Source: an uncultured Clostridia bacterium (lineage in GTDB: Bacteria; Bacillota; Clostridia; Christensenellales; UBA3700). From it: a stretch of 64,000 bases of DNA. The stretch spans positions 1,399 to 65,398 of the forward strand of contig CANSGN010000010.1 in the NCBI GenBank assembly GCA_947646415.1. Reading direction: 5' to 3'. This document shows positions 46,783 to 55,340 of the stretch, piece by piece; within the stretch, counting starts at the first letter, position 1; each line of letters opens with the position of its first letter. The notes under the pieces were generated by a model. It did no database searches, was not told the origin of the DNA, and saw nothing but the letters and a program-made list of their open reading frames with translations. The position numbers and the translations under genes are program-made.

Positions 46783-47020
46783 CACGGCATAACATAAAGA
46801 CGCTATACCGTGATTCCACTTTAATTCAACAACAAAAAAGTTGCTCTTGTATGCAGATAACGATGCCCCGAGCGACATTTCCTTCGCCTGACTATGTCAA
46901 TGCACTTCACAAAAGCATTTGCAAATAGGCTTCCACCCGATGGCCTATACTCTCTGTTACATTAGCTTTAGCTACTCTTTTGACAATTTTGTGACTAACC
47001 ACAACCGCCTTATCAAATTG
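46783..47020 (-). promoter_or_regulatory. T-box riboswitch leader (specifier UGC = Cys) with intrinsic terminator
   Basis: Elements on the minus strand, in order:
- Stem I base TGTCAA/TTGACA with a GA-type internal loop (AGAGTAG // GAAG-UGC-A)
- An AGAGAG bulge and a distal GGGUGGAAGCC
- T-box sequence AATTAAAGTGGAATCACGG (plus 46808-46826), overlapping the 5' arm of the terminator
- Terminator CACGGTAT...ATGCCGTG followed by TTTTTG (plus 46783-46812). Confidence 0.75.
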
Positions 47021-47027
47021 TAATTGA

Positions 47028-47057
47028 ATTATATCATAATATAAATATGTTTGTCAA
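47028..47057 (-). promoter_or_regulatory. Promoter of the T-box-cysE-cysS transcript
   Basis: On the minus strand: TTGACA (47052-47057), an 18-nt spacer, then TATAAT (47028-47033). Confidence 0.6.
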
Positions 47058-47121: not shown

Positions 47122-50100
47122 TTATGCAAGTGTTTTTACTGTTTCGCTATCATTATAATATTTACCGCCGATAGCAATTAATTTAATATCGGTGTAGCCG
47201 TCCAAATCCGCTTTTGAAATAACTAACTCTGTTACACCTGTGCTTATTTCGTAGTCCGATTTATCCGCACCTGTAAATACCAATTTGTATCTTAATGCGT
47301 TGTCCACCTTATTCCAACTAAACACATAGTTGTCGCCATCCAACTTAATTTCAAGCGATGGCGCAGCCAAATTAACATTTATTGGGTCAAATTTAGCATA
47401 AGCTTTGGCACTTGAGTTAATACCCTCTACACTGCTTTTTGCTACAATGATTATAGAGTGGTTACCAGGAGTAGTAAGCAAATTAGCAAACTTAGCCTCG
47501 CCGCTCAAATTAAAGAAAATTTCCTCCCCTGCTTTTACGTTGTCATTTTTAATAGTCAATACGATACCATCAAAAACTATCTCGTAAGTTTCGGCAAAAT
47601 GCACTGCCTTAAAAGTCAAAACATACTCGTTGTTATTATTTTTTTCTACCTTAGGAGCGCCTACTTTATCAAGTGTGATATAGTGAGTGTGTTGTGTAAA
47701 GTAAGGGTCGCTATCTCTTATAAATTCGGGCTCGTCAGAGCGCAATACAATTTTAATTGAGTGGTTGCCTACAGTGTTTAAAACAGTTCCCAAATCAAAT
47801 ACGTAGTTCGGTATACCATCGCTGTCCCTGTCTATTGCAAATTCCAAAGGAGTTTCCGCGTTATCGATAGTTACCAAAACTTTGGTAGCTAGGCTGTCGA
47901 TAGAAGAAAGTTCAAGCGTAGCTTTATCGCCCACTCTTTCGATAACCGCAAATTGAGGAGTTTCAAGCCAATCGATATATTTTTCGTTTTGAACATTGAT
48001 AATCAATGCGTTATTATCTTTTAAACTCTCTTTGCTTACCCAAACGGTATTAACACCGATAATTTTACCAAATCCGCCGTTTTCACTCACGTAAACAAGT
48101 TTACCGCCGCTGATTGTACCAAGTTCGCCGCTGTTAAAATCGTTGTAAGTAAAGCCTACCAATCTTAGTTCCGAATGTTCATCCAATACTGCGTTACCAA
48201 TATCGCTATTTGCACGAACACGCGCATTTTGCAAATTAATGTCGATTTTTGTAGCTTTATTAAATGTAATATCCGAATTTACTGCATTAATACTGCTTAT
48301 ATTTTCGCCAAAAGCTAGTTGGTCAAAAACGACTTTACTACTTCTCATATTAAACGAATTGTTTGCTTGAATACTACCTATAGAATTGCCTTGAGCAATA
48401 CTGTCAAACTCGATATCATTAGCAGAAACATTTGTCAAAATAGTTATTGAATTTGCATTTTTTATTGACAATTTGCCGTTAACGGTAATTTTACCACCCA
48501 AAGTATACTCTTTGCCCGACTTAACACCAAGCGTCATAGCCCCGCCTTTAGGGTTTTCCAATGTTAGGTTACCATTTACAGTCAAAGTCTTTTTGTTCAA
48601 ATCCACATTTAAGCCAAGTGTCAAATCGCCGTCAACCGTGATATCCTTTTCTAAATAATAAAGTTCCTTTTTGTCTTTGATAGGCTTTGCAAAATCTTCC
48701 GCACTGCTTATCAAAACTTTAGGCGCATTAATAACCAAAATAGGTGTTAAAACAGATACCAAAATAACAACCGCAAGCACAGCAACGGCAATTAAAATTG
48801 TAATAAGCTTTTTCTTTTTAGGGGTAGCTTTGCCTTTTTTATCCCCGCCTTTCTTTTTGCCTTTTTTATCTGTGCCTTGCTCATCTTCCTCACTATTTTG
48901 CTCGTTAGGGTCGATTTTTTCTGCATTTTCCGCATTGCTATCGTCTACGATAACTATATCGCTGTTTGCATCTTTAACTTCGTCATTGCTGTTTTGTTCG
49001 TCAGCAGGAATATCGCTTTCTTCGTCAACAACTTGGTCGTTAATGTTATCAACTTCTGTGGCGCTTTCATTCATCTCCTGCTCTTCAAAATCATTTTGCT
49101 CGTCTATTACAGCATCGATATTATCTTTTTCTTGCATATCTTCTTCCTTTTGCAAAAACATATCTACCAATTCGTCGCCAGAATTTAGCATAATTCCTGT
49201 TTTTGCACATTCACTTTCAGTATATGCAGAAACACCTTGTTTAATACAAGTGCTGTCGTAAATAATAAACGGAATAGGCTCACTGCTGTGAGTTTTTGTG
49301 ATAAGCGGTGTTGGATGGTCAGGACATACCAAAATACGCAAGTCCTCGTCCTCAAGCTCTCTCAAAATATATGCTACAACCTTTTCGTCAATAAGCTCGA
49401 TAGATTTTACCTTTCCTTTGCTATCCCCTTGATGTCCGCACTCGTCAGGTGCCTCCATGTGAAGATATACATAGTCAAAGCCGTCACGTATAGCTTGCAC
49501 GCAAGCTTGCGCTTTACCCTCAAAATTGGTATGTACAGTGCCTGTAACGCCCTCTACTTCAATAATTTCCATACCGCTTGCAATGCCTATACCTTTTAGC
49601 AAATCGACAGCGGAAATTACCGCTCCCCTCAAGCCGCGTAAGTTCTCAAAGTTAGGAAGAGTCGGTTTACTACCCTCTCCCCATAGCCAAATGCTATTTG
49701 CAGGGTTTTTACCTTCTGCTATCCTTTTTAAATTTATAGGGTGGTCTTTTAAAATATCGTACGACTTAACCATAAGGTCAAGCATTTTGTCGCCGTAAAG
49801 ACCTTTTGGCAAATAGTCGCCTATAACCTTGCCGCTTATGTCATGCGGAGGTGTGTATTCCGTACCACGCTCGCCGTTATGTTTAATCAAACAATGTCTG
49901 TAACTTACACCGCTGTAAAAAGCAAACTCGTCATCTCCAAGTGCCTCTTGAACAAAACCGATAAGCTCTGCTGCCTCTTCAGTAGAAATTTCGCCCGCGC
50001 TATAGTCTACCATACTTTTGTCTGCATATTTCTCCTCGTCCGACAAAGTAACAAGATTACACCTTACAGCCAAATCACTATCCGCCATATCAACACCTAT

Positions 50101-50346
50101 ACTTAGTGCCTCCAAAGGCGACCTACCGCTGTAATACTTTAATGGAGAATATCCCATAACCGACAAATTGGCAACATCACTGCCGGGTTTTATGCCGTCG
50201 GGAACAGTCTTACACATACCGCAAATTGCCTTTTGTGCCAAGCTGTCAATATTAGGCTTGTATGCAACTTCAAGCGGAGTCATACCGCCAAGTGCGTCCG
50301 ATGGCAAATCTGCCATTCCGTCCCCTAAAATCACAATATATTTCAT
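47122..50346 (-). CDS. Fusion protein: archaeal-type cofactor-independent phosphoglycerate mutase (ApgM-like), acidic linker, TM helix, and a large extracellular beta-helix/Ig-like region
   Basis: The ORF track starts at 50373. MKYIVILGDGMAD (50346) is the typical ApgM N-terminus. Motifs GSDVANLSVMGY, RCNLVT and YLHMEAPDECGH are present. These are followed by a D/E/N-rich ~110 aa stretch, the block KKGKKKGGDKKGKATPKKKK, the TM helix LITILIAVAVLAVVILVSVL, and a further ~530 aa. Confidence 0.8.
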   Translation of the reverse strand: MKYIVILGDGMADLPSDALGGMTPLEVAYKPNIDSLAQKAICGMCKTVPDGIKPGSDVANLSVMGYSPLKYYSGRSPLEALSIGVDMADSDLAVRCNLVTLSDEEKYADKSMVDYSAGEISTEEAAELIGFVQEALGDDEFAFYSGVSYRHCLIKHNGERGTEYTPPHDISGKVIGDYLPKGLYGDKMLDLMVKSYDILKDHPINLKRIAEGKNPANSIWLWGEGSKPTLPNFENLRGLRGAVISAVDLLKGIGIASGMEIIEVEGVTGTVHTNFEGKAQACVQAIRDGFDYVYLHMEAPDECGHQGDSKGKVKSIELIDEKVVAYILRELEDEDLRILVCPDHPTPLITKTHSSEPIPFIIYDSTCIKQGVSAYTESECAKTGIMLNSGDELVDMFLQKEEDMQEKDNIDAVIDEQNDFEEQEMNESATEVDNINDQVVDEESDIPADEQNSNDEVKDANSDIVIVDDSNAENAEKIDPNEQNSEEDEQGTDKKGKKKGGDKKGKATPKKKKLITILIAVAVLAVVILVSVLTPILVINAPKVLISSAEDFAKPIKDKKELYYLEKDITVDGDLTLGLNVDLNKKTLTVNGNLTLENPKGGAMTLGVKSGKEYTLGGKITVNGKLSIKNANSITILTNVSANDIEFDSIAQGNSIGSIQANNSFNMRSSKVVFDQLAFGENISSINAVNSDITFNKATKIDINLQNARVRANSDIGNAVLDEHSELRLVGFTYNDFNSGELGTISGGKLVYVSENGGFGKIIGVNTVWVSKESLKDNNALIINVQNEKYIDWLETPQFAVIERVGDKATLELSSIDSLATKVLVTIDNAETPLEFAIDRDSDGIPNYVFDLGTVLNTVGNHSIKIVLRSDEPEFIRDSDPYFTQHTHYITLDKVGAPKVEKNNNNEYVLTFKAVHFAETYEIVFDGIVLTIKNDNVKAGEEIFFNLSGEAKFANLLTTPGNHSIIIVAKSSVEGINSSAKAYAKFDPINVNLAAPSLEIKLDGDNYVFSWNKVDNALRYKLVFTGADKSDYEISTGVTELVISKADLDGYTDIKLIAIGGKYYNDSETVKTLA

Positions 50347-50578
50347 ATTATACCTACCTTTGGCATACGCCAAAAAAAGATTTTTTGAGTTTTAAATGCG
50401 CATATTAAAAATATTTATTAAAATGCAATATAACAATATAATACCTAAAACATTATATTAATATTATAATAAGCATATTAATACGATTATATTTTTATTT
50501 ATACATTATAATTATACACTCAAAAACTCATTAAGTCAAGAAAATTAATTATCACAAGCAAACGTAAGCCAAAACATA

Positions 50579-50623
50579 TTTCTTGAACGGTTGTTGGACG
50601 GTTTGTTGAACGGTATGCAAAAA
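50579..50623. repeat. 45-bp direct repeat, copy 1 (downstream flank of fic)
   Basis: TTTCTTGAACGGTTGTTGGACGGTTTGTTGAACGGTATGCAAAAA is identical to 51669-51713. Confidence 0.95.
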
Positions 50624-50648
50624 GCACCTGCTAATTAGGTGCTTTTTT
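50619..50648. terminator. Bidirectional terminator after fic
   Basis: A5-GCACCT-gctaatt-AGGTGC-T6. Confidence 0.75.
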
Positions 50649-50653
50649 AGATT

Positions 50654-51619
50654 TTACTTTTTATAATACTTTTGATTACGATTGTTTGGCATATCGGGAT
50701 AAGTCATAGCGATTAAGCCTTTTTCTAATGCAGGTTTCAAATAACTTTCGCGGAGAGTTTGCTTACGAGTAAGCCCAAGTTTAGCCATAAGTTCATTTGC
50801 ACTTTGTGGCTCGTAATCAATTACACCCATTAATCGTTCAATATTTTCAGGAAGTTTTTCGTCTTTCAGCTCACAAAGGCTATCGTAAATAATTTGCAAC
50901 AAAAATTCCACAAATACGCTTGAATCCACACTGCTATCGGCACAAGCAAGACATTTGTAATATTCCTTTTGCCTTGATTTTATAAGAGTTTCTATAGGCA
51001 AATAAATGAATATAGGATGATAAGTAGATAAAAGCAAAGTTTGCCACAAACGCCCCATCCTGCCATTTCCGTCTTGAAAAGGATGTATAAATTCAAACTC
51101 ATAATGAAAAACACATGACTTTATTAAAATATGCAGTTCGCTTTGTTCAACCCATTGCAAAAGATTATTAATATGCCCTTTTACCATGTGTGCAGGTGGA
51201 GCTAAATGCACAAGCCTATCTCCCTCAAAAACACCTACACTACCTGTACGAAATTTGCCTGCCTCGCATACAAGCGATTGCATCATTAACTTATGTGCTT
51301 GTAGCAAATCAGAAATGCTGTAAGGATTAAAAGATAAAATATGTTCGTATGCCTCAAAAGCATTTTTAACTTCCTGTATTTCAGACGGCATACCCAATAC
51401 TCTTTTACCATTTACAATAGCCGTAACTTGCTCAATACTTAAAGTATTATTTTCTATAGCTAGCGACGAATGAATTGTTTTTATCCGATTCTCGCGACGT
51501 AAACGAATATCCGGAACAGGTCTATTGTCATATTTAAATTTTCCTATTATTTCGCTTATTTTAGCCACTAAGTTAACAATTTTTGTATTTAAATTAAAAG
51601 GCGGTTTATACTCTTCCAT
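50654..51619 (-). CDS. fic: Fic-family protein (class II: N-terminal inhibitory helix plus a C-terminal wHTH-like tail)
   Basis: 321 aa. The Fic motif is HPFQDGNGRMGR. The upstream inhibitory motif is SSLAIEN, matching (S/T)xxxE(G/N). Confidence 0.9.
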   Translation of the reverse strand: MEEYKPPFNLNTKIVNLVAKISEIIGKFKYDNRPVPDIRLRRENRIKTIHSSLAIENNTLSIEQVTAIVNGKRVLGMPSEIQEVKNAFEAYEHILSFNPYSISDLLQAHKLMMQSLVCEAGKFRTGSVGVFEGDRLVHLAPPAHMVKGHINNLLQWVEQSELHILIKSCVFHYEFEFIHPFQDGNGRMGRLWQTLLLSTYHPIFIYLPIETLIKSRQKEYYKCLACADSSVDSSVFVEFLLQIIYDSLCELKDEKLPENIERLMGVIDYEPQSANELMAKLGLTRKQTLRESYLKPALEKGLIAMTYPDMPNNRNQKYYKK

Positions 51620-51770: not shown

Positions 51771-54700
51771 TTAGTTAATTCTTTTGAAAATCATAATTTC
51801 GTCAAATACATAATCTTCAACTTGTAAGAATGTTGCGATTTCCGCATTATTACCAAATCTGCACTCAATTTCCTTTTCAGGGATTACCATACTAATTTGG
51901 TATACATTGCCTTGTCTTAAATATTGAGTAAAGTCAGAGGCATTAAATCCATTGATTGTTAGATTAGGTTTATTGTTTTCTGTATCATACTCAGTATCTG
52001 CTTTGCCGTAAACAAATGTAGCACTTATGTAATAAATACCATCCAACAAGAATGCCTCATATTTCATTGATTTTTCTTTAACAACACCAGGGAAAGTAGC
52101 AATATTTTCAACTTTCTCGATATTTAAATCGGTAATAGCATAAATTACCGACGGCTGTTCGCCTACATCCACACGTGCACCATTTACCAAATATGTTGTT
52201 TTAGCCTCCAATGTTACAGGAGCACCATAATCCATAGATACGGAATTTTTATTGTCATAAACTACTTGAACTTTAGGAGCATCAGCAGTCTCTTCAAACA
52301 AAGCCTTAAATTCTACAACTTTGTTCACTTCATCCCTTGATACTTCTTCCCAGCCTTTGAATATCCAACCCATTTCATTAGGCAATCTGTATTCTGCATC
52401 GTATGATGGGATATGATAATAACATTCTCTCTTTAATTCGTTGTAGTTTGCACGATAAATATGTTTCCAAGGCTTAGCCGCCATGTCGATATCTTCGTAA
52501 ACAGCTGTTAAAGTAAAGTTTTCTTGAACTTTTAACGAATATTTAGGAAGATAAGTCAAATAGCTACCGTCTTTTCTTTGCCAGCCTACAAAAACTTCAC
52601 CTTCTTTGGCAGCAGGAGCATCCAAATAAACTTTATCGCCATATTTATAATCGTCTTTTTCGACTATATCAACACCATCATCGATAGTTACTGTATAAAA
52701 TCTTTCTGCATAATCTACAAATGCAATTTCTTTCAAACTATCATCGGTAGCGGTATAAGTTGCAGTCATTAAGCCGTTATTATTAGTCCAACTAATACCT
52801 GTAATTTCGTTGCCGTTTTTATCTATTAGTTTTACGGCACTTGCAGTAAAGTGGCTATCATCCAATCTTGCAGTGATGGTAATTGTACGCTTTTGAGCGT
52901 TTTTATCTGCATTTCCAAAATCAAAGTTGCTCATAAATTTGTACTCACCGCCTACGGCTGCACCATTTATATAAATACTTGGGTGTACTGTTACAGTGTG
53001 AGGTTTGATTTCTGCTGCAAAATAACTTCCTATCTCTTCTAGTACCATATGACCGTTGCTAAGCTCTACTTCTTGATACAAAATATAGTTGTTTGTAGAT
53101 GGTCTTAATAATTGTCTGCCCGCAATATTTAATTTAATGCTAACACCTTCGTTATATCCTGTATCTTGCCACATCATTTGTTCGTTAGCAGCAAATCCGG
53201 AGTATACACCTGACCTATCGTCGGTCATTTTGTTAAAGGAAACATACGCATTTCCGAAAATAGTTGTTTCTCCTCGTTTGTAACCTGCAGAAGTTCTAAC
53301 CAATAGACTTCTTTTTTGGATAGTAATGGTTCTTAACATACTATCGTTAATAACATTATTTAAAAGCACGACAACTTTTTCCTGCTCGTCACTGTAAGCA
53401 ACGGCATGTTCTCTATCGCCGTTATCGTCACAATAAAGTTTTACTGCTCTTCCGTTAAAAACATTCATGGAGTTTTTAAGGTCTCCTACATTTATAACTC
53501 GCAATCCTTTATCGTAAAGCTGTCCGTTTATTTTCATTTTCAATTCGTATGTAGTACCATCGTAATACAAAGGAGAATCTACACCACCATTTTTAGCACT
53601 TCTGGTTTGGTCGGACATTTCCATCCATTTTATACCGTCAGTGTCAGAAACCTCTCCATTGCTATCCATCTTATAAAATCCTATTTCGCCGGTACTATTT
53701 ATACCTACTTCGATTTCCGAGGTTGTAGCTGCATCCGGATAGTTGTTTTTTACAATAATGCCCGACTCTAAGTTAGAGAATGTTGGAGAGCTATACAAAG
53801 TCCACAAAATTTTACCTTGAGGTACAAAAATCACTACACCTTGGCCATCATGATTGAAAAAGTAAGGTATTGCAACACCATTGTTACCATTATTCCTTCC
53901 GTTTGTTGTAAGAGTTGCTTTTTCTCCGCAATCTCCGTAACCTTGATTGTATACACTTCCGCTGGCCTCGTTACCCTCCTTATTGGTACCGCCTGTAGCG
54001 TTCATATAAATCATTGTTCCGGGTAAAGGTCCTTCCGCAATATAAATATTCTTCATTTGCTGTACGCCTTCGCCTTCGCCACTACCGCCGCTTGAGCCCT
54101 CTGCTATCATACAATCCAAATTGCCGGATACCATTGCAGTTGTTACGCTAGCACCTGAGTTAACACCTATAATACCACCTATCTTTCTATAGCACTTATA
54201 AGGTCCTCTGCTTGCTCCGTTTTGATGGGTTTTTATATAGCCATGTAATCTACTATTATTCTCAAATTTAGCATATAGGTTGTTAAGTTTTGCACCATTT
54301 GCAACATAACCAGCTATACCACCAATCAAAGTTGAGCCCGAATTTCTATAGGTTTTAGTCGGGAAAGTACCTGTCCAATATCCCGACCTACCTTCTGCAT
54401 ATAGCTTGCTATTAGTTCCAAAAATTGCAGTTGCATTGCTTATAGTTCCACCTCTGCTTGCACCTACAACAAGTCCTAATAATATAGCTCCGTTACAACC
54501 TGATTTAGAAAAAGTATCGTCTCTATCTATCCCCTCGTGAGAAGAAACATATAATTGCTTATCGGCAGCCAATTCCACAACTACGTTATCTATATCGCCG
54601 CCGCTGTTATAGCCCACTAGACCTCCAAAGGCTATATGCGCATCTAATCTACCCTCATTATTACTTACACTGCCGGTATCTCTATATGTTATTTTATGAT

Positions 54701-55340
54701 TCCATGGGATATAAAATTTGAAATTAAACAATTTACCGCCTGCGCCAAGCTCGTTAAGCATACCGCCAAAGCAATGGTAAGCTACAGGATATGGATTACC
54801 ACTATCATCCGGCATTTCATATCCAGGTATATCTTTTGCTGTTACATGAGGTCTTTGACCTACTGATTGAGCATGATCACAGGCTATAATATCCGGACCG
54901 CCGCCTTCTAAAGTTACTGTATATCCACATCCGTCAAACCATTTTGTAAACTTACCCACGCTGCCGGGTGCAAGACCCGCATAAGTTGAGGTTGTTCCCC
55001 AATCCAAGGTAACATTAGAGGTCAAATATCCGCTTTTGCCGGAATAACTACCCTCTTGTTTTAAAAAACTTTGTAATTGAGCGCCGTTGCTTATAGCAAC
55101 CCAATCGGTTGATTCCACATAACCGGAACTGTTTATGTACCTTTCCTGGTCGCCAACACCGCCCAAATAGTTATTTTCGGTATAACCCTCGTTAAGAACA
55201 GGCTGTACTGTATCCAAATAAGTACCATTGCTGATATCCGACTTGTTTAAGGTTAACACCCCAAACAAAGCCAAAACAAAAGACAATGTAAGCACTATAC
55301 TGATGCAAATACCGAATACCCTCGTCTTTCTTCTTTCCAT
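51771..55340 (-). CDS. Large secreted/anchored surface protein with GLUG-motif repeats and Listeria-Bacteroides (Flg_new-type) repeats
   Basis: 1189 aa. An N-terminal signal-anchor is present. GLUG-like units include GGLVGYNSGGDIDNV, IGGIAGYVANGAKLNN and IGGIIGVNSGASVTT. C-terminal units such as FVGWQRKDGSYL...FTLTAVYE and IFKGWEEV...FKALFE are present. Confidence 0.8.
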   Translation of the reverse strand: MERRKTRVFGICISIVLTLSFVLALFGVLTLNKSDISNGTYLDTVQPVLNEGYTENNYLGGVGDQERYINSSGYVESTDWVAISNGAQLQSFLKQEGSYSGKSGYLTSNVTLDWGTTSTYAGLAPGSVGKFTKWFDGCGYTVTLEGGGPDIIACDHAQSVGQRPHVTAKDIPGYEMPDDSGNPYPVAYHCFGGMLNELGAGGKLFNFKFYIPWNHKITYRDTGSVSNNEGRLDAHIAFGGLVGYNSGGDIDNVVVELAADKQLYVSSHEGIDRDDTFSKSGCNGAILLGLVVGASRGGTISNATAIFGTNSKLYAEGRSGYWTGTFPTKTYRNSGSTLIGGIAGYVANGAKLNNLYAKFENNSRLHGYIKTHQNGASRGPYKCYRKIGGIIGVNSGASVTTAMVSGNLDCMIAEGSSGGSGEGEGVQQMKNIYIAEGPLPGTMIYMNATGGTNKEGNEASGSVYNQGYGDCGEKATLTTNGRNNGNNGVAIPYFFNHDGQGVVIFVPQGKILWTLYSSPTFSNLESGIIVKNNYPDAATTSEIEVGINSTGEIGFYKMDSNGEVSDTDGIKWMEMSDQTRSAKNGGVDSPLYYDGTTYELKMKINGQLYDKGLRVINVGDLKNSMNVFNGRAVKLYCDDNGDREHAVAYSDEQEKVVVLLNNVINDSMLRTITIQKRSLLVRTSAGYKRGETTIFGNAYVSFNKMTDDRSGVYSGFAANEQMMWQDTGYNEGVSIKLNIAGRQLLRPSTNNYILYQEVELSNGHMVLEEIGSYFAAEIKPHTVTVHPSIYINGAAVGGEYKFMSNFDFGNADKNAQKRTITITARLDDSHFTASAVKLIDKNGNEITGISWTNNNGLMTATYTATDDSLKEIAFVDYAERFYTVTIDDGVDIVEKDDYKYGDKVYLDAPAAKEGEVFVGWQRKDGSYLTYLPKYSLKVQENFTLTAVYEDIDMAAKPWKHIYRANYNELKRECYYHIPSYDAEYRLPNEMGWIFKGWEEVSRDEVNKVVEFKALFEETADAPKVQVVYDNKNSVSMDYGAPVTLEAKTTYLVNGARVDVGEQPSVIYAITDLNIEKVENIATFPGVVKEKSMKYEAFLLDGIYYISATFVYGKADTEYDTENNKPNLTINGFNASDFTQYLRQGNVYQISMVIPEKEIECRFGNNAEIATFLQVEDYVFDEIMIFKRIN

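Follow-up and report, generated by a model that had tools for sequence, protein, structure and literature searches.

The 64,000-nucleotide stretch of DNA analyzed here (contig CANSGN010000010.1 of an uncultured Clostridia bacterium, positions 1,399 to 65,398; referred to below as the window) carries on its minus strand a gene that joins an enzyme to a membrane protein in a single uninterrupted frame of 1074 codons, running from the ATG at 50346 to the stop at 47122 (stop codon 47122-47124). The comparisons presented below indicate a natural fusion, of a kind that has recurred, between two genes that Christensenellaceae-like gut Clostridia keep as a conserved pair. Judged by profiles, motifs and genome content, its N-terminal 399 residues are HomK (TIGR02535/ThrB2), a homoserine phosphotransferase replacing ThrB, and its C-terminal 675 residues make up a type-II membrane protein that crosses the membrane once and belongs to an undescribed family without a Pfam model. 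We put the probability of this explanation, taken as a whole, at roughly 0.7. The identity, origin and topology of the fused protein as read here are held with high confidence; that HomK and the membrane module are physical partners is an evenly balanced proposition.

Architecture of the fused protein

The open reading frame (ORF) listing gives the gene as 47122..50373 (-), 1083 amino acids from a TTG codon. The true start is the ATG at 50346, which yields 1074 amino acids, because homologs all begin with MKY and a ribosome-binding site, AAAGGTAGG, precedes that ATG. The segments of the gene are as follows.

47122..50346 (-), whole fused gene; ORF listing and translation, with the same intact frame in an independent genome (L023) and in a genome of the same genus (G107)
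49150..50346 (-), HomK domain, ApgM-like homoserine phosphotransferase, residues 1-399; TIGR02535 score and alignment with 2zkt
49135..49137 (-), Met404 codon, relic start of the membrane-module gene; collinearity with the split relative L012
48871..49149 (-), acidic disordered linker, residues 400-492; composition, 36 Asp/Glu versus 4 Lys/Arg
48808..48870 (-), basic cluster, residues 493-513, 12 Lys in 21 residues, a positive-inside signal; composition
48730..48807 (-), single transmembrane (TM) helix or signal anchor, residues 514-539; no other segment exceeds a hydropathy of 2.0
47968..48729 (-), juxtamembrane SAEDF motif followed by a predicted beta-solenoid, residues 540-793; AlphaFold2 model
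47125..47967 (-), three predicted tandem FN3 domains, residues 794-891, 892-991 and 992-1074; model and Foldseek

The TM helix has a hydropathy of 3.28 and is the sole strongly hydrophobic segment of the fused protein, and 12 Lys/Arg residues lie in the 25 residues that precede it versus 5 in the 25 that follow. The charge asymmetry together with the single hydrophobic helix supports an N-in/C-out topology, and the sequence has what is expected of a type-II single-pass protein, namely one hydrophobic helix, no N-terminal signal peptide and a positive-inside bias. The ectodomain would thus be 535 amino acids long. An earlier note on this DNA had described an enzyme, a linker, a Lys block, one TM helix and a repeat ectodomain in one frame, and had placed the enzyme inside and the repeats outside; the segment analysis bears out this layout, and the 12 versus 5 asymmetry bears out the topology. 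Two of its details needed adjustment. The D/E/N-rich linker of about 110 residues is indeed acidic, but it divides into 93 acidic and 21 basic residues, and the three modules described as Ig/FN3-like are there and are specifically FN3, with a Foldseek match to the contactin FN1-FN3 triplet at E = 5e-11.

Identity of the enzyme

The enzyme had been described in the earlier note as a glycolytic-type phosphoglycerate mutase of the ApgM type, possibly with a moonlighting or signalling role at the membrane. In favor of a mutase, residues 1-399 score 526.7 bits with NF003242 (cut-off 426) and 518 bits with TIGR00306 (cut-off 320), and NCBI names homologs "cofactor-independent phosphoglycerate mutase". 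However, the cut-off of TIGR02535 ("proposed homoserine kinase") is likewise passed, with 506.3 bits against 446.3 (509.6 bits in the genome scan). Furthermore, a relative classified under TIGR00306 has been confirmed as HomK by complementation (bioRxiv 10.1101/2024.10.14.618325), and therefore NF003242 and TIGR00306 do not separate HomK from mutases.

The active-site residues are more telling. Homology to the mutase 2zkt extends over all 400 residues of the enzyme (E = 6e-60) and includes the metal-binding and Ser motifs, and D9, D301, H305, D343 and H353 sit in conserved metal-site motifs that align with those of 2zkt. The catalytic serine of HomK is S56 (bioRxiv 10.1101/2024.10.14.618325), and Ser56 is present in the window enzyme under the same residue number as in BT2402. 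At the aligned specificity position, the window enzyme has Glu298, in HMEAPDECGH, where 2zkt has Lys, in HFKPTDAAGH; a Glu at this position (E299 in BT2402) has been reported to separate HomK from true mutases, which have Lys there (bioRxiv 10.1101/2024.10.14.618325). The window enzyme is therefore homologous to the ApgM mutases (PDB 2zkt, 3idd and 3kd8; TIGR00306) but has Glu in place of their specificity Lys. BT2402-type proteins (HomK/ThrB2) rescue an Escherichia coli thrB mutant, as shown for BT2402 of Bacteroides thetaiotaomicron and DET_RS08350 of Dehalococcoides mccartyi (2026 preprint, bioRxiv 10.1101/2024.10.14.618325). The fold, the motifs, Ser56 and the Glu are common to these described enzymes and the window enzyme; the described enzymes are soluble proteins of about 400 amino acids, whereas the window enzyme is covalently joined to a 675-residue membrane protein.

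The gene content of the genome (1.73 Mb, 96.5% complete) points in the same direction. A stand-alone canonical GpmI is encoded at C13:34629-36143 (689 bits versus a cut-off of 330.65), which is the second, stand-alone pgm that the earlier note had suggested looking for, and the phosphoglycerate mutase step of this genome is thus covered. Profile searches of the same genome found both homoserine dehydrogenase (Hom) and ThrC, and no ThrB (best match 22 bits versus a cut-off of 168), no match for a His_Phos_1 protein and no second PF10143 gene. Among 34 related genomes, ThrB passes its cut-off in only two, both of which are without HomK. Since ThrB is absent and there is no second PF10143 gene, the fused protein is the only evident route to O-phosphohomoserine in the cell. 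The designation as a glycolytic mutase was therefore not borne out, given Glu298 rather than Lys, the TIGR02535 score, the presence of GpmI and the absence of ThrB beside Hom and ThrC, and we consider a membrane-tethered mutase very improbable.

Conservation of the fusion

Because related genera do carry the two genes separately, with only 1-2 bases between them, an assembly or sequencing artefact or a recently broken gene could in principle have joined them in the window. A word-index search returned 257 long homologs, of which 121 were retrieved and examined, and in every one of these the specificity residue is Glu, a single segment exceeds a hydropathy of 2.0 and gives the sole TM helix, a basic patch precedes the helix (5-14 Lys/Arg within 25 residues), and the linker is acidic, with a length between 43 and 225 amino acids. 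A single cluster, P0002, holds 112 member sequences from NCBI, ENA and Logan, which is difficult to reconcile with an artefact. The 1074-codon frame is retained in L023, an independent metagenome-assembled genome (MAG) from mouse gut (uncultured Christensenellaceae), and the same-genus genome G107 has an open frame of 1085 amino acids. Between the window and L023, with synonymous divergence (dS) of about 0.12-0.29, the ratio of nonsynonymous to synonymous substitution (dN/dS) is 0.058 for HomK, 0.075 for the TM helix and solenoid and 0.068 for the FN3 domains. In contrast to these values of about 0.06-0.08 in the folded parts, the linker and basic cluster (residues 400-513) give 0.53. Since the fused frame persists in G107 and the independent MAG, with purifying selection keeping dN/dS of the folded parts below 0.1, the window gene is not an artefact, a possibility to which we attach practically no weight. 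The substitution pattern thus indicates that the fusion is genuine and conserved, with purifying selection acting on both the enzyme and the ectodomain.

The linker has some conserved elements of its own. Of 66 acidic linkers from fused or split homologs, 31 contain the short motif [ILVMF][ILVMF][ILVMFAT]x[DE], versus 11 expected from shuffles; it is not universal and was not used as evidence. The window copy of this hydrophobic-acidic motif is DIVIVDDS, at residues about 460-470, and clade-specific linker motifs, for instance AKIDPN and GEMILTDDLPP, are likewise conserved.

Fused and split gene pairs across the order

The module also occurs without the enzyme. A search with the module alone found proteins of 704-712 amino acids with an identical layout of acidic tail, basic patch, TM helix, SAEDF, solenoid and FN3 domains. 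At locus L009, such a module gene starts 2 bases past the stop of a separate homK gene. This homK encodes 402 amino acids that are 62% identical to the window domain and include the specificity Glu, and an AGGTGA Shine-Dalgarno sequence overlaps its stop. Three of four further "stand-alone" homK genes from different clades of the tree (L012, L013 and L015) also precede a module gene, of 706-726 amino acids, and L012 shares with the window the downstream cysE-cysS genes. In another lineage (L014:5001-8707), a stand-alone homK is followed on the same strand by genes for an MBOAT-family membrane acyltransferase and a 336-amino-acid protein, with no solenoid/FN3 module.

In a survey of 301 genomes of the order (enzyme-free module profile, threshold E <= 1e-20), HomK passes its cut-off in 113, mostly as a plain protein of 400-430 amino acids, and the module was found in 34, 28 of which have HomK as well. 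The arrangement by family is as follows.

Own family f1 (15 genomes sampled, from 8 genera): in each of the 15, homK and the module lie on the same strand with homK immediately upstream; 4 fused (genera g1 and g3), 11 split
Family f12: homK and module split and adjacent
Family f23: homK and module adjacent
Family f25, genera g59 and g114: homK and module fused
Family f34 (3 genomes with the module): homK and module are divergent neighbours in one genome and unlinked in the other two
Family f25, genus g32: weaker module matches, HomK absent

Altogether, same-strand adjacency or fusion is seen in 23 of the 26 genomes with both parts, from four families, with tight spacing in the junctions examined. 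In a HomK tree of 137 domains, fused and split forms are interleaved; parsimony gives 10 changes, at least 5 of which are forced by well-supported branches. There is no conserved third gene around the pair or the fusion, and the neighbourhoods of L009-L015 differ from that of the window except for cysE-cysS in L012. In an exhaustive profile search of 1.84 billion representatives, HomK was the only recognizable cytoplasmic domain on the module, with no other found. The ortholog search proposed in the earlier note, for the fusion versus separate genes, thus returned both forms, and on this comparative evidence we interpret the window gene as one instance of a recurrent fusion.

Several other arrangements were encountered in these searches. 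The stand-alone modules P0390, P0359, P0262 and P0124 have a short basic start peptide (MKRRNRRP or MSKKKKRNN, for instance) and, ahead of the TM helix, a disordered acidic tail that can reach about 430 residues. In genome G249 (C27:18815-20017), an above-cut-off HomK lies within an open frame of 937 amino acids although this genome has no module match at the survey threshold, and this HomK may be fused to a more divergent or a different C-terminal part. Classical ThrB is found within frames of 756-781 amino acids at G283:C2:6335-7102 and G025:C1:89578-90345, in a genus that has a module-like protein and no HomK, which suggests that ThrB itself is fused to another domain there.

The junction and Met404

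The origin of the fused frame can be followed at the junction. In L012, homK ends with LLFKIGD and a stop, and the module starts one base later with MKDYNS; in the window, MFLQKEED is followed by Met404 and QEKDN, with caaaaggaagaagatATG at the place collinear with the L012 junction. A 2-nucleotide length difference relative to L012 merges the two frames. The fusion thus arose through a small indel that merged homK with a module that, in split relatives, starts 1-2 bases past the homK stop, and Met404 is, by this collinearity, the relic start codon of the once-separate membrane-module gene, possibly still usable. The earlier note had offered a stop-codon-loss fusion and a genuine membrane-anchored protein as alternatives, and both are true in a sense: the gene arose by loss of a stop or frame boundary between two neighbouring genes, and it now encodes a conserved, selected membrane-anchored protein. 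Its suggestion that sister genomes with a stop after the enzyme and a separate start would speak against the fusion has a similarly divided outcome, since this arrangement is seen in other genera of the family but the same-genus G107 and L023 stay fused.

Besides the 120-kDa fusion, the gene might additionally yield a free module of 671 amino acids from an internal start at Met404. The cell would then contain tethered HomK as well as untethered module, and such a dual-product gene would be compatible with the explanation that we prefer. L023-L027 and 17 of 18 listed clade members have retained Met404 together with a purine-rich Shine-Dalgarno-like AAGGAAG located 7-13 nucleotides upstream of it, in a linker that is otherwise poorly conserved. 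However, acidic codons (GAA, GAG and GAT) give Shine-Dalgarno-like strings by themselves, one conserved Met may be simple inheritance in a young clade, and such a Met is absent from other fused clades (P0018, P0042, P0057 and L010). A second product is thus doubtful.

Structure of the ectodomain

The C-terminal 675 residues gave nothing above threshold against Pfam, NCBIfam or PDB sequences, and what can be said of their fold comes from models. The AlphaFold2 model of residues 537-1074 (62-row alignment, m15b1a616fb85) has a mean predicted local distance difference test score (pLDDT) of 94.1, and that of the solenoid alone (m847cc4cb1836) has a pLDDT of 95.8 and a predicted TM-score (pTM) of 0.90. 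In these models, residues 540-793 form a beta-solenoid and residues 794-1074 three FN3 domains, so that the structure prediction called for in the earlier note is now available at pLDDT 94-96. Besides the contactin triplet, Foldseek with the C-terminal 280 residues retrieved FN3 triplets of titin and fibronectin at up to 1e-8, and in a viral protein library it retrieved FN3 proteins as generic matches only. The Pfam fn3 profile is below threshold on the window protein despite the FN3 fold in the model.

For the solenoid, Foldseek gave no significant match in the PDB (best E = 0.037, TM-scores of 0.39 or less), and the weak matches are generic beta-helix adhesins, lyases and tailspikes. The general beta-solenoid architecture is common to the window protein and right-handed beta-helix proteins such as the Limosilactobacillus reuteri SRRP (5nxk), the PL6 lyase 8bwk, the Hap and VacA passengers and phage tailspikes. 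In contrast to this shared architecture, the Foldseek matches to them are insignificant, and neither a Pfam family nor catalytic motifs were identified in the window solenoid. In an alignment of five divergent members, the residues AED, KD, GD, D and N are invariant; they lie near the membrane, where the solenoid begins.

Possible working of the protein

From the motifs, the topology signals, the modelled ectodomain fold, the selection on both halves and the conserved pairing, a working model can be drawn. HomK would stay cytoplasmic and act as the only homoserine-phosphorylating enzyme of the cell, making O-phosphohomoserine for threonine synthase. It would hang from the inner face of the membrane on a flexible acidic leash of about 110 residues, and the solenoid/FN3 stalk would be exposed outside the cell and serve in binding or as part of the surface structure. 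Because tight adjacency or fusion has been kept across several families, the two proteins are probably present in similar quantities and act together physically, with the membrane protein scaffolding HomK.

A neutral, hitch-hiking fusion is the main rival to this partnership. According to it, homK and the module would be co-transcribed neighbours with unrelated functions, the enzyme would merely tolerate its tether, and the unconstrained disordered start of the module, 1-2 bases past the homK stop, would let small indels fuse and split the genes repeatedly. Several observations favor neutrality and at the same time weigh against a physical unit. HomK works without such a partner in Bacteroides, and most HomK genomes of the order encode only the plain protein (113 of the 301 genomes have HomK, and the module is found in 34). 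Conversely, the module occurs without HomK in genus g32, and the two genes are unlinked in two of the three sampled module-carrying f34 genomes. The linker is variable in length (43-225 amino acids) and fast-evolving, which argues against precise positioning or allosteric coupling, and there is no conserved docking domain or motif at the N-terminus of the split modules. Finally, the repeated fusion and fission, evident from the interleaving of fused and split forms on the HomK tree, suggests that the covalent link itself is close to neutral. Against neutrality stand the adjacency or fusion in 23 of 26 genomes and four families while the surrounding genes are not conserved, and the finding that HomK is the sole enzyme found on the module. 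Gene order conserved to such a degree is typical of interacting products. We therefore regard a neutral fusion as possible but less likely than a partnership.

The layout, with a cytoplasmic catalytic domain, one TM helix and a repeat ectodomain, also resembles that of receptor kinases, and the ectodomain could be imagined to sense an outside or cell-wall ligand and to tune HomK by clustering or oligomerization, thereby coupling threonine supply to the state of the envelope. PASTA Ser/Thr kinases such as PrkC offer a parallel, in which a sensor outside the cell is linked to a catalytic domain in the cytoplasm, and these kinases and the RsgI-type anti-sigma factors have the same N-in/C-out arrangement with one TM helix and extracellular repeats. 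In addition, Foldseek retrieves insulin-receptor ectodomains (solenoid L-domain plus FN3) at about 1e-9, and a ligand or a metal could bind at the invariant AED, KD, GD, D and N. However, neither half of the window protein is related in sequence or fold to the PASTA kinases or RsgI, and its cytoplasmic part is a biosynthetic enzyme on a long disordered acidic linker. The insulin-receptor match is generic, with a TM-score of about 0.27. A disordered acidic linker of 43-225 amino acids cannot transmit a conformational change, and split forms exist without any covalent connection; because of these two points, an allosteric, receptor-like enzyme is quite unlikely.

Within the scaffolding model, a more specific role can be formulated. 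The surface solenoid/FN3 protein and HomK could form a previously undescribed functional membrane complex that recruits or controls the homoserine-committing enzyme, or that delivers or uses O-phosphohomoserine or the phosphate donor of HomK at the envelope. This proposal is speculative, and we think it rather unlikely as it stands; if true, it would tie amino-acid synthesis to a cell-surface process in small-genome gut Clostridia.

Local context and regulation

The elements around the fused gene are as follows.

50511..50539 (-), predicted sigma-70-type promoter of the fused gene, TTGACT-17-TATAAT, a near-consensus match only
50347..50510 (-), leader of about 165 nucleotides, very AT-rich, separating the predicted promoter from the start codon of the fused gene, with no Rfam match
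50619..50647, strong terminator hairpin after the Fic gene
50654..51619 (-), Fic/DOC-family protein with a Fic-like C-terminal domain
51771..55340 (-), 1189-amino-acid protein with an N-terminal TM helix or signal anchor, a GLUG motif and Listeria-Bacteroides (Flg_new) repeats
47028..47057 (-), perfect TTGACA-18-TATAAT promoter ahead of the T-box and cysE-cysS
46793..46991 (-), T-box leader in front of cysE-cysS

The promoter of the fused gene (50539-50511) lies downstream of the terminator hairpin of the Fic gene. The T-box leader is the sole Rfam match (RF00230, 72 bits against a gathering score of 93, E = 1e-14), and neither a riboswitch nor a T-box, such as a Thr T-box, was found by Rfam upstream of the fused gene. 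With a promoter of its own, and with a separate promoter and T-box for cysE-cysS, the fused gene looks monocistronic, as far as these predicted elements indicate. The 1189-amino-acid protein is a second large surface protein, encoded two genes upstream of the fusion.

Implications

The enzyme half of the fused protein belongs to the known HomK family, and the membrane half belongs to an undescribed one. The earlier note had called the arrangement unusual, and this holds up: a HomK fused to a membrane segment was not found in the literature, and the HomK paper mentions no TM segment or fusion (bioRxiv 10.1101/2024.10.14.618325). As in Rosetta-stone fusions, homK and the module are separate neighbours in many genera and fused in others. 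Such fusions usually join two pathway enzymes or the subunits of a complex, whereas here a soluble enzyme of an amino-acid pathway is joined to a surface-exposed membrane protein. A soluble biosynthetic enzyme located beside, and repeatedly fused to, such a protein is an unexplained association. The locus also illustrates neatly how a multi-domain membrane protein is made, and unmade, in nature through a small indel at a tight gene junction. In the module family itself, a disordered acidic tail (about 40-430 residues) leads into one TM helix, after which come a beta-solenoid that has no significant counterpart in the PDB and three FN3 domains.

Public records name the fused homologs only "cofactor-independent phosphoglycerate mutase". 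With hundreds of catalogue proteins labelled in this way, metabolic models of Christensenellaceae-like gut bacteria would lack the threonine step and gain a spurious second glycolytic mutase. The phosphate donor and the regulation of HomK are still open questions (bioRxiv 10.1101/2024.10.14.618325), and the conserved partner described here provides a concrete experimental handle.

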